A stretch of DNA of 64,000 nt from Escherichia coli (GTDB lineage Bacteria > Pseudomonadota > Gammaproteobacteria > Enterobacterales > Enterobacteriaceae): assembly GCF_016903815.1 (NCBI RefSeq), contig NZ_CP069973.1; one strand, written 5' to 3'. Shown here in pieces: positions 1 through 13,632 of the stretch. The notes beneath the pieces were generated by a model. That model was given only the letters and a program-made list of their open reading frames with translations, did not search any database and had not been told where the DNA came from. Position 1 is the stretch's first letter. Each line of letters begins with the position of its first letter. Both the position numbers and the translations under genes were made by a program.

Positions 1-1087
1 CCCGTGAACTCAGCCTGTATGAATCACAGCTCTACAACTGGCGCAGTAAACAGCAAAATCAGCAGACGTCTTCTGAACGTGAACTGGAGATGTCTACCGA
101 GATTGCACGTCTCAAACGCCAGCTGGCAGAACGGGATGAAGAGCTGGCTATCCTCCAAAAGGCCGCGACATACTTCGCGAAGCGCCTGAAATGAAGTATG
201 TCTTTATTGAAAAACATCAGGCTGAGTTCAGCATCAAAGCAATGTGCCGCGTGCTCCGGGTGGCCCGCAGCGGCTGGTATACGTGGTGTCAGCGGCGGAC
301 AAGGATAAGCACGCGTCAGCAGTTCCGCCAACACTGCGACAGCGTTGTCCTCGCGGCTTTTACCCGGTCAAAACAGCGTTACGGTGCCCCACGCCTGACG
401 GATGAACTGCGTGCTCAGGGTTACCCCTTTAACGTAAAAACCGTGGCGGCAAGCCTGCGCCGTCAGGGACTGAGGGCAAAGGCCTCCCGGAAGTTCAGCC
501 CGGTCAGCTACCGCGCACACGGCCTGCCTGTGTCAGAAAATCTGTTGGAGCAGGATTTTTACGCCAGTGGCCCGAACCAGAAGTGGGCAGGAGACATCAC
601 GTACTTACGTACAGATGAAGGCTGGCTGTATCTGGCAGTGGTCATTGACCTGTGGTCACGTGCCGTTATTGGCTGGTCAATGTCGCCACGCATGACGGCG
701 CAACTGGCCTGCGATGCCCTGCAGATGGCGCTGTGGCGGCGTAAGAGGCCCCGGAACGTTATCGTTCACACGGACCGTGGAGGCCAGTACTGTTCAGCAG
801 ATTATCAGGCGCAACTGAAGCGGCATAATCTGCGTGGAAGTATGAGCGCAAAAGGTTGCTGCTACGATAATGCCTGCGTGGAAAGCTTCTTTCATTCGCT
901 GAAAGTGGAATGTATCCATGGAGAACACTTTATCAGCCGGGAAATAATGCGGGCAACGGTGTTTAATTATATCGAATGTGATTACAATCGGTGGCGGCGG
1001 CACAGTTGGTGTGGCGGCCTCAGTCCGGAACAATTTGAAAACCAGAACCTCGCTTATGCCTGTGTCCATATTACGTGGGTAGGATCA
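1..1087 (+). mobile_element. IS3: IS3 insertion sequence, 5' part cut by window edge; right inverted repeat ends ...CCATATTACGTGGGTAGGATCA at 1087
   Basis: orfA/orfB protein and DNA match recalled IS3 (InsE/InsF); terminal IR recognised at 1066-1087; window starts about 170 bp inside the element. Confidence 0.85.
3..194 (+). CDS. insE: IS3 OrfA (InsE) transposase N-terminal subunit, 5'-truncated by window start
   Basis: Frame 3 reads [63 protein letters not shown] then TGA at 192-194; overlaps orfB start as expected for the -1 frameshift arrangement. Confidence 0.8.
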
Positions 1088-2893: not shown

Positions 2894-3397
2894 TTATTGA
2901 TAGTGTTTTATGTTCAGATAATGCCCGATGACTTTGTCATGCAGCTCCACCGATTTTGAGAACGACAGCGACTTCCGTCCCAGCCGTGCCAGGTGCTGCC
3001 TCAGATTCAGGTTATGCCGCTCAATTCGCTGCGTATATCGCTTGCTGATTACGTGCAGCTTTCCCTTCAGGCGGGATTCATACAGCGGCCAGCCATCCGT
3101 CATCCATATCACCACGTCAAAGGGTGACAGCAGGCTCATAAGACGCCCCAGCGTCGCCATAGTGCGTTCACCGAATACGTGCGCAACAACCGTCTTCCGG
3201 AGCCTGTCATACGCGTAAAACAGCCAGCGCTGGCGCGATTTAGCCCCGACATAGCCCCACTGTCCGTCCATTTCCGCGCAGACGATGACGTCACTGCCCG
3301 GCTGTATGCGCGAGGTTACCGACTGCGGCCTGAGTTTTTTAAGTGACGTAAAATCGTGTTGAGGCCAACGCCCATAATGCGGGCTGTTGCCCGGCAT
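2894..3397 (-). CDS. insB: IS1 InsB (transposase C-terminal part, expressed as InsAB' by -1 frameshift)
   Basis: 167-aa [29 protein letters not shown]... matching IS1 InsB; A6C slippery motif TTAAAAAACTC on minus strand at 3331-3342. Confidence 0.9.
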
Positions 3398-3591
3398 CCA
3401 ACGCCATTCATGGCCATATCAATGATTTTCTGGTGCGTACCGGGTTGAGAAGCGGTGTAAGTGAACTGCAGTTGCCATGTTTTACGGCAGTGAGAGCAGA
3501 GATAGCGCTGATGTCCGGCGGTGCTTTTGCCGTTACGCACCACCCCGTCAGTAGCTGAACAGGAGGGACAGCTGATAGAAACAGAAGCCAC
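3316..3591 (-). CDS. insA: IS1 InsA (DNA-binding transposition inhibitor / transposase N-terminal part)
   Basis: 91-aa [45 protein letters not shown]... zinc-finger-like CxxC...CxxC, matches IS1 InsA. Confidence 0.9.
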
Positions 3592-6207: not shown

Positions 6208-7725
6208 TTATTTTACCGGACGCATCGCCGGGAACAGAATAACGTCGCGGATGGTATGGCTGTTGGTGAACAGCATTACCATACGGTCGATGCCAATCCC
6301 CAGACCTGCTGTCGGCGGTAAGCCATGTTCCAGTGCGGTAACGTAATCTTCATCGTAGAACATCGCTTCGTCGTCACCTGCGTCTTTCGCGGCAACCTGA
6401 TCCAGGAAGCGTTGCGCCTGATCTTCCGCGTCATTCAGCTCGCTAAAGCCGTTACCGATTTCACGACCACCGATGAAGAACTCAAAGCGGTCTGTGATTT
6501 CCGGGTTAATGTCGTTACGACGCGCCAGCGGAGAAACTTCTGCCGGATATTCAGTAATGAAGGTCGGCTGAATCAGATGTGCTTCTGCCACTTCTTCGAA
6601 GATCTCGGTAACGATACGGCCCAGACCCCAGCTCTTCTCAACGTGGATACCGATAGATTCAGCAATCGCTTTCGCAGAGTCGAAGTTATCCAGATCCGCC
6701 ATGTCGGTTTCCGGGCGATATTTCTTGATCGCTTCACGCATGGTCAGTTTTTCGAACGGTTTACCGAAGTCCAGCGTCACGTCGCCGTAGGTCACTTCCG
6801 TCTTACCGAGAATATCCTGTGCCAGAGTACGGAACAGCGATTCGGTCAGCTCGATCAGATCTTTGTAATCTGCGTAAGCCATGTAGAGTTCCATCATGGT
6901 GAACTCTGGGTTATGACGTACGGAGATACCTTCGTTACGGAAGTTACGGTTGATTTCGAATACACGCTCGAAGCCACCGACCACCAGACGCTTGAGGTAC
7001 AGTTCCGGCGCGATACGCAGGTACATGTCGAGATCCAGCGCGTTATGGTGGGTGATAAACGGACGCGCAGCGGCACCGCCAGGGATCACCTGCATCATCG
7101 GCGTTTCAACTTCCATAAAGCCGCGGTTCACCATGAACTGGCGAATACCAGAGAGGATCTGCGAGCGCACTTTAAAGGTGTTACGGGATTCATCGTTAGA
7201 GATGAGATCCAGATAACGCTGACGATAGCGCGCTTCCTGATCCTGCAAGCCGTGGAATTTATCCGGCAGCGGACGCAGTGCTTTGGTCAGCAGACGCAGC
7301 TCGGTACAGTGGATAGACAGTTCGCCGGTTTTGGTTTTGAACAGTTTACCTTTCGCGCCGAGGATGTCACCGAGGTCCCATTTTTTGAACTGCTCGTTGT
7401 AAACGCCTTCCGGCAGATCGTCACGGGCAACGTACAGCTGAATGCGGCCACCCACATCCTGCAGGGTAACGAAAGACGCTTTACCCATAATACGGCGGGT
7501 CATCATGCGGCCAGCAACGGCGACTTCGATGTTCAGCGCTTCCAGTTCTTCGTTCTCTTTACCGTCGAATTCTGCGTGCAATTGGTCAGAGGTATGATCG
7601 CGACGGAAATCGTTCGGGAAGGCAATCCCCTGCTCGCGCAGGTTCGCCAGCTTCTCACGACGCGTTTTCAGTTCATTGTTAAGATCGACTACCGCGTCAG
7701 CGCCCTGTGCGTGTTGTTCAGACAT
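6208..7725 (-). CDS. lysS: Lysyl-tRNA synthetase (constitutive, class II)
   Basis: 505-aa [36 protein letters not shown]... class II aaRS motifs; 9 nt downstream of prfB as in the prfB-lysS operon. Confidence 0.95.
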
Positions 7726-7734
7726 GTTGGTTCC

Positions 7735-8833
7735 TCATAACCCTGCTTTCAAACTTGCTTCGATAAATTGATCCAGGCTGCCGTCCAGCACGGCCTGCGT
7801 GTTGCGGGTTTCTACCCCGGTACGCAGATCTTTAATGCGGGAGTCATCAAGGACATAAGAACGAATCTGGCTGCCCCAGCCGATGTCGGATTTGTTATCT
7901 TCCATCGCCTGTTTCTCGGCATTTTTCTTCTGCATCTCCAGTTCATAAAGCTTCGCTTTCATCTGCTTCATGGCCTGGTCTTTGTTCTTGTGCTGGGAAC
8001 GGTCGTTCTGGCATTGGGTCACGATCCCGGTTGGGATGTGGGTAATACGCACCGCAGATTCGGTACGGTTAACGTGCTGACCGCCCGCGCCGGACGCGCG
8101 ATAAACGTCAATGCGCAGATCCGCCGGGTTGATTTCGATATCAATATCATCATCAACTTCCGGGTAAACAAACGCAGAGCTGAACGATGTGTGGCGACGA
8201 CCGCCGGAGTCAAACGGGCTTTTACGCACCAGGCGGTGAACGCCAGTTTCTGTACGCAGCCAGCCGTAAGCGTAATCGCCGGAGATTTTGATCGTCACGG
8301 ATTTAATACCCGCCACTTCACCTTCCGACTCTTCGATGATTTCAGTTTTGAAACCACGCGATTCTGCCCAGCGCAGATACATACGCTCAAGCATGCTCGC
8401 CCAGTCCTGTGCTTCCGTACCGCCAGACCCCGCCTGAATATCGAGGTAGCAGTCGGCGCTGTCATATTCGCCAGAGAACATACGGCGGAACTCAAGCTGC
8501 GCCAGTTTTTCTTCCAGGGCGTCGAGTTCAGCAACGGCTTCGTTAAAGGTTTCTTCGTCGTCAGCTTCTACAGCCAGTTCCAGCAGACCAGAAACATCTT
8601 CCAGCCCCTGTTTCATTTGGTCGAGAGTGTCGACAACGGCTTCGAGGGAGGAACGCTCTTTACCCAGCGCCTGTGCGCGTTCGGGTTCGTTCCAGACATC
8701 CGGCTGTTCCAGCTCGGCGTTTACTTCTTCCAGACGCTCTTTCTTGGCGTCGTAGTCAAAGATACCCCCTAAGAACGTCGGAGCGTTCCGTGAGGTCCTG
8801 AATGCGATTATTTACCGGATTAATTTCAAACAT
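7735..8833 (-). CDS. prfB: Peptide chain release factor 2, expressed via programmed +1 ribosomal frameshift at in-frame UGA codon 26
   Basis: ATG at 8833 gives [25 protein letters not shown] then TGA (8758-8756); +1 frame continues [16 protein letters not shown]... to stop at 7735 (25+340=365 aa); GGQ and SPF motifs present. Confidence 0.93.
8755..8773 (-). promoter_or_regulatory. prfB autoregulatory frameshift window: internal Shine-Dalgarno-like AGGGGG, slippery CUU UGA C
   Basis: Minus-strand sequence CTTAGGGGGTATCTTTGAC read directly; matches the canonical RF2 recoding site. Confidence 0.9.
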
Positions 8834-8923
8834 GGTCTGATTTCTTTTATTGAGCTAGTCAAAATGCGGTGATAAGAGCGGGATTGTACCCAATCCACGC
8901 TCTTTTTTATAGAGAAGATGACG

Positions 8924-10657
8924 CTAAATTGGCCAGATATTGTCGATGATAATTTGCAGGCTGCGGTTGCCGCGAAACTCGTTGATATCGAGCTTGTAAG
9001 CCAGTTGCACTTCGCGCACGCCGTTATCCGGCCAGAGGGCGGTATCGACATTAAAAGCAATACCATCCAGCAGTGGACCGCCGCCGACCGGTTCGACCAT
9101 CACCTTCAAATGACGTTCGCCCACCAGCCGCTGTTGCAGCAGACGGAAATGACCGTCAAACAGCGGCTCCGGGAACATCTGCCCCCACGGGCCAGCATCG
9201 CGCAGCAACTGCGCCACTTCCATGGTCATTTCGGCCGGGCTTAACGGACCGTCTGACACCACTTCGCCTTGCAATAGCGAAGGGTCCAGCCACTCTGTAA
9301 CCAGTTCGCCAAACCGTTGTTGAAAGAGTTCGAATTTATCCTCTTCCAGCGACAAACCCGCCGCCATCGCATGACCGCCAAACTTCAGTATCATGCCAGG
9401 GTAGAGTGTGTCTAATCGCTCCAGTGCATCACGCATATGCAGCCCCTGAATGGAGCGACCTGAACCTTTCAGCGTACCATCACCTGCTGGCGCAAAGGCG
9501 ATAACCGGACGGTGAAAACGCTCTTTGATGCGCGAAGCCAGAATACCGACAACGCCCTGATGCCATTCGGGGTGATACATTGCCAGCCCGCCGGGTAGCG
9601 TGTCGCGACTTCGCTCCAGTTTCTCGCACAGGGTCAGGGCTTCAACTTGCATTCCTTGTTCGATCTCTTTTCGCGTCTGGTTTAGCGCATCGAGTTCATT
9701 TGCCAGCACGCGCGCTTCGCCGATGTTGTCGCACAGCAAGAGCGCCACACCGACGGACATATCGTCCAGTCGTCCGGCAGCATTGAGACGTGGCCCCAGC
9801 GCAAAACCTAAATCGCTGGCGGCGAGTTTTTGTGCATCACGGTTTGCCACTTCCAGCAGCGCTTTAATCCCTGGACGGCACTTTCCGGCACGGATGCGAC
9901 TCATCCCCTGCCAGGTCAGAATGCGATTATTAGCGTCCAGCGGCACGACGTCCGCCACTGTTCCCAGCGCGACCAGATCCAGCAGTTCTGCCAGGTTAGG
10001 AATTGCGATGCCACGCTCATAAAACCAGCCCTGATCGCGCAAAAAGGTGCGCAGCGCCAGCATCAGATAAAACGCCACACCCACGCCTGCCAGTGATTTC
10101 GACGGGAAATTACAGTCGCGCAAGTTAGGGTTAATGATCGCTTCCGCTGCGGGTAATGTTTCGCCCGGCAAATGGTGATCGGTAACAATAACCGGAATGC
10201 CCAACGAGCGAGCGTGTTCAACGCCCGCATGGGAGGAAATACCGTTATCCACCGTGACAATTAACTGCGCGCCACGGGCATGGGCCTGATCGACTACTTC
10301 CGGGCTTAAGCCGTAACCGTCTTCGAAACGGTTTGGTACCAGATAGTCGATATTGCTGCAACCAAGCGAGCGCATCGCCAGCACGCTTAGAGCCGTGCTG
10401 GTCGCGCCGTCGGCATCAAAATCACCAACCACAATAATCCGCGTTCCTTCGCGAAAAGCGTTGTAAAGGATCTCAACGGCCTTTTCGACGCCGCTCAGTT
10501 GCTGCCAGGGCAGCATACCTTTAACACTGCGTTCCAGTTCTTGCGCACTGCGTACTCCCCGGCTGGCGTATAAACGGCGCAGCAAGGGAGGCAATTCAGC
10601 GGGCAAGTCTGCCGTTTCATCGACTTCACGGCGACGAAGTTGTATCTGTTGTTTCAC
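8924..10657 (-). CDS. recJ: Single-stranded-DNA-specific 5'-3' exonuclease RecJ (DHH family)
   Basis: 577-aa ORF; DHH motif (VVGDFDADGATS, VTDHH), matches RecJ. Confidence 0.95.
   Translation of the reverse strand: MKQQIQLRRREVDETADLPAELPPLLRRLYASRGVRSAQELERSVKGMLPWQQLSGVEKAVEILYNAFREGTRIIVVGDFDADGATSTALSVLAMRSLGCSNIDYLVPNRFEDGYGLSPEVVDQAHARGAQLIVTVDNGISSHAGVEHARSLGIPVIVTDHHLPGETLPAAEAIINPNLRDCNFPSKSLAGVGVAFYLMLALRTFLRDQGWFYERGIAIPNLAELLDLVALGTVADVVPLDANNRILTWQGMSRIRAGKCRPGIKALLEVANRDAQKLAASDLGFALGPRLNAAGRLDDMSVGVALLLCDNIGEARVLANELDALNQTRKEIEQGMQVEALTLCEKLERSRDTLPGGLAMYHPEWHQGVVGILASRIKERFHRPVIAFAPAGDGTLKGSGRSIQGLHMRDALERLDTLYPGMILKFGGHAMAAGLSLEEDKFELFQQRFGELVTEWLDPSLLQGEVVSDGPLSPAEMTMEVAQLLRDAGPWGQMFPEPLFDGHFRLLQQRLVGERHLKVMVEPVGGGPLLDGIAFNVDTALWPDNGVREVQLAYKLDINEFRGNRSLQIIIDNIWPI

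Positions 10658-12959: not shown

Positions 12960-13632
<673 letters not shown>

Follow-up and report, generated by a model that had tools for sequence, protein, structure and literature searches.

The frameshift mechanism of prfB has been known since the 1980s. The autoregulatory frameshift of the release factor RF2 dates from the work of Craigen and Caskey (1986), to which PMC5373646 refers. Across 12,753 surveyed genomes, prfB is interrupted in 64%, with AGGGGG, CTTT, TGA and the next C almost invariant, and the survey counts Actinomycetota among the lineages that are devoid of the motif altogether (PMC12421855). The prfB sites of other bacteria have in common an SD-like AGGGGG, a 3-nt spacer, CTTT, TGA and a C, at a distance of about 24-27 codons from the start of the gene; the spacer codon alone varies: most Gammaproteobacteria have TAT or TAC there, and Paenibacillus and Staphylococcus have TCT.

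The closest described system is the prfB gene of E. coli K-12 (b2891), which has the same neighbours as the gene examined here (recJ-prfB-lysS), the same length of 1099 nt and the same 30 nt around the site. The RF2 sequences of K-12 MG1655 and of the window (the whole stretch of E. coli chromosomal DNA that we analysed, 64 kb in length) are identical at 364 of 365 residues; the sole amino acid difference is A246T, to which nine synonymous differences are added. Residue 246 is an alanine in the window (GCG, with G at window position 8097) and a threonine in K-12. Ala246 is the form encountered outside K-12 and terminates better, while Thr246 is a peculiarity of K-12 associated with a reduced termination activity (PMC5373646). 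The DNA therefore belongs to a strain other than K-12.

The same window contains another recoding site, in the insAB' gene of IS1, which PGAP also labels 'programmed frameshift'. Its slippery site, A-AAA-AAC at 3342..3334, induces a shift in the -1 direction, versus +1 in prfB. The IS1 shift has no stop-codon sensor, and it sets the transposase ratio rather than providing autoregulation through a release factor. The annotated IS1A transposase occupies window positions 2894-3591 on the minus strand and has the classical A6C -1 slippery site, TTAAAAAAC, at 3342..3334. At the left edge of the window (1-1054), a truncated IS3-family transposase is likewise annotated as a programmed-frameshift gene.

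The locus that we describe here is almost certainly E. coli prfB, a gene under classical autoregulation by a +1 programmed ribosomal frameshift. The site is ordinary, textbook and already known, and it is correctly annotated in public genomes; it is the founding example of the RF2 frameshift family rather than one of its variants. Our analysis establishes how the sequence is laid out, what the product is and how far the site is conserved; the base pairing, the slippage and the dependence on the level of RF2 are taken from the literature (PMC12421855).

On the minus strand, the ATG at 8833 starts a series of 25 sense codons which, translated in frame 0, ends at TGA 8758-8756. The +1 frame, translated from 8757 (GAC), is open over 340 codons, until the stop TGA 7737-7735. 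The joined product is therefore 25 + 340 = 365 amino acids long. The coding region is organized as follows.

7735..8833, minus strand: prfB, full RF2 coding region; 1099 nt, made of 25 frame-0 codons, the +1 shift, and 340 codons plus the stop; joined CDS in RefSeq.
8759..8833, minus strand: frame-0 segment, codons 1-25; encodes the 25-aa peptide that would be freed if RF2 terminates at the UGA (outcome described in PMC12421855).
7735..8757, minus strand: +1-frame segment, codons 26-365 and the TGA stop; contains SPF 205-207, GGQ 250-252 and Ala246.

A mechanical list of open reading frames breaks this gene in two: it gives an ORF of 293 aa (7735..8616, minus strand) and a separate ORF of 25 aa (8756..8833, minus strand). 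The list shows a 293-aa fragment because the first ATG, GTG or TTG of the +1 frame is codon 73 (ATG 8616). Between the shift site and ATG 8616 there are 47 open codons with no ATG, GTG or TTG, and there is none either on going back to TAA 8814-8812, the first +1-frame stop in the upstream direction. The sequence-only reading of this stretch had stated that the ORF track gives only a 293-aa fragment, which matches the mechanical list, and that 25 codons from ATG 8833, a UGA and a +1 continuation add up to 365 aa, which the translation of both frames confirms; codon 26, where it had envisaged a sense codon as the contrary case, is TGA.

The window is collinear over its 64 kb with the genome of strain 7/2 (NZ_CP023820.1), from which it differs by a single base (window 13249). 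In that genome, the RefSeq/PGAP annotation places at the same coordinates prfB, "peptide chain release factor 2", as a CDS joined from two pieces and marked 'programmed frameshift', so that the span of 7735-8833 proposed from the sequence coincides with the RefSeq prfB CDS of a genome that differs by one base in 64 kb. The joined structure, with the same 'programmed frameshift' mark, is also that of b2891 in K-12 MG1655.

Judging from its sequence, the joined product is full-length RF2, a class I peptide chain release factor. The 365-aa product scores 525.9 bits against the NCBIfam model TIGR00020 (prfB), for a cutoff of 370, and the RF1 models give 304-306 bits on the same product, under their cutoffs of 400 and 423.25. 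NCBIfam flags TIGR00020 as a model of the kind 'exception'; this flag, together with the fact that a mechanical ORF finder yields just the 293-aa fragment, makes "annotation trap", the expression used earlier for this locus, a fair one. Solved chains of E. coli RF2 can be aligned with the product from residue 1 to residue 365, without any gap at the junction RGYL|DYD; the translation of both frames followed by an alignment to RF2, which had been suggested as a check, thus results in a continuous RF2 alignment. In the case of PDB 1gqe, the match is exact at 364 of 365 residues and the alignment runs unbroken through the junction. The joined product has SPF, the stop-codon recognition tripeptide, at residue 205, and GGQ, the catalytic motif, at residue 250. 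The roles of SPF and GGQ in RF2 are described in PMC5373646.

A different view of the same coding region would be that ribosomes initiate independently in the +1 frame to make RF2, ATG 8616 (293 aa) being one possible start, and that the 25 codons form an upstream ORF with no relation to it. The mechanical list does include a 293-aa ORF from this ATG, but the 25 frame-0 residues align with RF2 residues 1-25, both in PDB entries and across species, and the open stretch that lacks a start codon encodes residues 26-72, which align with RF2 structures and homologues; initiation at ATG 8616 would lose residues 1-72. We consider this internal initiation very improbable.

Coming back to the frameshift, the motif itself, CTTAGGGGGTATCTTTGAC, is found at 8773-8755 on the minus strand. 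Its core, AGGGGGTATCTTTGAC, occurs only once in the 64-kb window, at 8770..8755 (minus strand), where the chance expectation, allowing up to one mismatch, is 0.04 matches. Its elements are the following.

8770-8765, minus strand: internal SD-like AGGGGG, 3 nt upstream of CTT; its pairing with the 3' end of 16S rRNA, which would stimulate the shift, is known from the literature (PMC12421855).
8764-8762, minus strand: 3-nt spacer TAT (UAU, Tyr24); the E-site codon while CUU is in the P site.
8761-8758, minus strand: slippery CUU-U, made of CTT 8761-8759 and T 8758; site where the P-site tRNA-Leu would re-pair from CUU to UUU (PMC12421855).
8758-8756, minus strand: in-frame UGA, codon 26; RF2-specific stop, which senses the level of RF2.
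8755, minus strand: C that directly follows the UGA; gives the weak termination context UGAC (PMC12421855), and is also the third base of GAC (Asp26), the first +1 codon.

All the elements of the canonical RF2 frameshift are therefore present with the canonical spacing, on comparison with PMC12421855. The claim that every one of them could be recognized in the sequence (internal SD, CUU slippery codon, UGA followed by C) holds, at coordinates 8770-8755 of the minus strand.

In the mechanism that is described for such sites, translation from ATG 8833 would proceed over 25 codons until CUU (Leu25) occupies the P site and UGA the A site. The UGA followed by C would be a weak stop, read by RF2 alone. 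When RF2 is plentiful, termination would occur at the UGA with release of the 25-aa peptide, and when RF2 is scarce, the ribosome would pause there (PMC12421855). AGGGGG, 3 nt upstream of CUU, would then pair with the anti-SD of 16S rRNA, the E-site tRNA would be destabilised and the peptidyl-tRNA-Leu would slip from CUU to UUU; GAC (Asp26) would enter the A site, and translation in the +1 frame would produce the 365-aa RF2 (PMC12421855). Since termination at the UGA prevails when RF2 is plentiful and the shift when it is scarce, RF2 would repress its own synthesis.

Ribosome profiling, which had been put forward as a way of checking the site, has already been carried out and published at the native locus in E. 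coli: frameshifting amounts to about 28% when RF2 is that of K-12 and about 21% when it is the Ala246 (B-type) form, and it reaches about 47%, also by ribosome profiling, in an E. coli strain lacking RF3 (PMC5373646). These published measurements apply directly to the window, because K-12 and the window share the same 30 nt around the site.

A requirement for a downstream RNA structure was considered and rejected, nothing unusual being found in the fold. The z-score for the 111 nt around the site is -1.49, and 16 of 200 shuffled sequences folded equally well. The folding around the prfB site is thus unremarkable, in keeping with a mechanism that operates without a downstream structure. A permissive Rfam scan of 7000-9500 matched no family, SECIS included; this blank reflects a missing curated model and not a missing element.

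The surroundings of the gene are as follows.

6208..7725, minus strand: lysS (lysine-tRNA ligase), the downstream neighbour, which starts 9 nt past the prfB stop.
8834..8923, minus strand: recJ-prfB intergenic region, 90 nt; presumed site of the prfB promoter and leader.

A consensus scan of 7600-9200 did not locate the promoter of prfB: it gave no sigma-70-like site in the recJ-prfB gap, and its one promoter-like match falls within prfB, which is what chance would give (1 found, 1.1 expected). The gap also contains, at 8881-8896, a 6-bp hairpin (GGATTG TACC CAATCC) which is terminator-like on the plus strand only; there is no T-run after it on the strand of recJ and prfB. Two long ORFs of the mechanical list run antisense to prfB and lysS, 7768-8772 (plus strand, 334 aa) and 6325-7740 (plus strand, 471 aa); these long antisense ORFs are most likely shadow ORFs that result from the codon bias of highly expressed sense genes. 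Further away, the single base that distinguishes the window from strain 7/2, at 13249, falls in ygfX (12960-13373, minus strand): the codon is that of Trp42 in the window, where YgfX is intact, and is a stop in strain 7/2, where the annotation lists ygfX as a pseudogene that has an internal stop.

The locus is conserved throughout the species. Many RefSeq genomes match the 1401 nt around the site at 100% identity, and a single copy of this region occurs in 5425 of the 5426 complete E. coli genomes. Of these 5425 prfB matches, one belongs to a record whose label is that of a plasmid; in one of the 5426 genomes there is no match to prfB. The 40 nt that span the site (8792-8753) are found exactly in 5416 of the 5426 genomes. 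In an 80-nt comparison, the variants sampled are outside the motif: codon 27 alternates synonymously between TAC and TAT, and one strain has D19N.

The conservation extends well beyond E. coli. A scan with CTTAGGGGGNNNCTTTGAC as the query and one genome per species gave at least 120 loci, and 119 of the 120 matches listed are prfB, with the same layout as in the window. Since these loci were picked by the motif itself, they show that the motif marks prfB and do not give its unbiased frequency. The only match of the 120 listed that is not prfB (locus L101) has TAG as a spacer and no RF2 homology, and is presumably a chance match. The number of codons that precede the TGA is 24-27 in about 106 of the 119 prfB loci listed and ranges from 18 to 53 in the others; the start codon was called by a simple script, and these outliers mostly come from the choice of an ATG further upstream. 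Where the contig spans the whole gene, the +1 frame of the listed loci is about 340-350 aa long and matches the RF2 of the window.

Among the matches listed, prfB genes that bear the motif reach Firmicutes, Gemmatimonadales, Poribacteria and Marinimicrobia. The identity of their RF2 to that of the window goes down to 44% over the full length (Staphylococcus) in the 119 listed loci, and to 33-35% in two partial matches; it is near 47-53% in Paenibacillus, Gemmatimonadales, Poribacteria and Marinimicrobia. The spacer in the 119 prfB loci listed is TAT in 77 cases, TAC in 19 and TCT in 16. It tracks taxonomy, with TAT/TAC (Tyr) in Gammaproteobacteria and TCT (Ser) in Firmicutes (Paenibacillus and Staphylococcus: L009, L029, L035, L038, L052, L053, L073, L077 and others), and the rare spacers in the same set are TTC, TTT, CAT, TCA and AGA.

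Two public E. coli records depart from the layout by the deletion of one nucleotide in a homopolymer run within the motif, which removes the need for a frameshift. In BH100 substr. MG2014 (NZ_CP024650.2, 3122832-3122910; L002 1236-1240), the G5 of the motif is reduced to G4 and the predicted protein reads ...RGIFDYD. In O157:H7 SS17 (NZ_CP008805.1, 3830558-3830596; L130 1232-1234), CTTTGAC becomes CTTGAC and the predicted protein is identical to the normal RF2. In both of these records prfB is annotated as an uninterrupted CDS of 1098 nt. The two deletions may be homopolymer sequencing or polishing artefacts. That they are genuine natural losses of RF2 autoregulation (bypass alleles) seems rather unlikely to us; they could nevertheless be real, because exactly such single-nucleotide deletions in prfB are reported as compensatory mutations in the experimental evolution of Pseudomonas fluorescens (bioRxiv 10.64898/2026.01.08.698412). 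If genuine, the two E. coli deletions would parallel these compensatory prfB mutations.

The BH100 record has a bearing on another explanation of the window's layout, namely that the frame is restored in the RNA, by slippage of RNA polymerase in the G5 run, and not by the ribosome. The motif does contain a G5 homopolymer, and the deletion of one G in the DNA of BH100 does restore the frame. However, the loss of one G changes the junction to RGIFDYD, but the deposited RF2 sequences read RGYLDYD, and slippage of the polymerase would account neither for the conservation of CTT-TGA-C nor for its constant distance of 3 nt from the SD-like element. A run of five Gs is also short for transcriptional slippage, to which we give next to no credence.

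The same two records speak for regarding the interruption as a sequencing or assembly error, or the gene as a pseudogene in this strain, inasmuch as single-base homopolymer indels are seen at exactly this spot in public records (BH100 substr. MG2014 and O157:H7 SS17). Against this, 5416 of the 5426 complete E. coli genomes have exactly the same 40 nt at the site, the interrupted layout recurs in 119 other species among the matches listed, and prfB is single-copy. It is also an essential gene, which counts against a pseudogene. An error or a pseudogene is thus refuted by the conservation, and its probability is negligible.

Least probable of all is a readthrough of the UGA (as Trp, Cys or selenocysteine) with no frameshift. 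UGA followed by C is indeed a leaky stop context (PMC12421855), but frame 0 continues past the UGA for 31 codons of unrelated sequence before a stop and cannot yield RF2, the RF2 homology continues in the +1 frame only, and the Rfam scan found neither a SECIS nor another element.

For annotation, the consequence of the programmed +1 frameshift is that plain ORF calling reports prfB as a 293-aa fragment, so that the gene needs to be handled as a known exception, as the NCBI pipeline already does. As regards the organism, this is a release factor that senses its own concentration through a stop codon located inside its own gene, and the intact site means only that the strain is normal in this respect.
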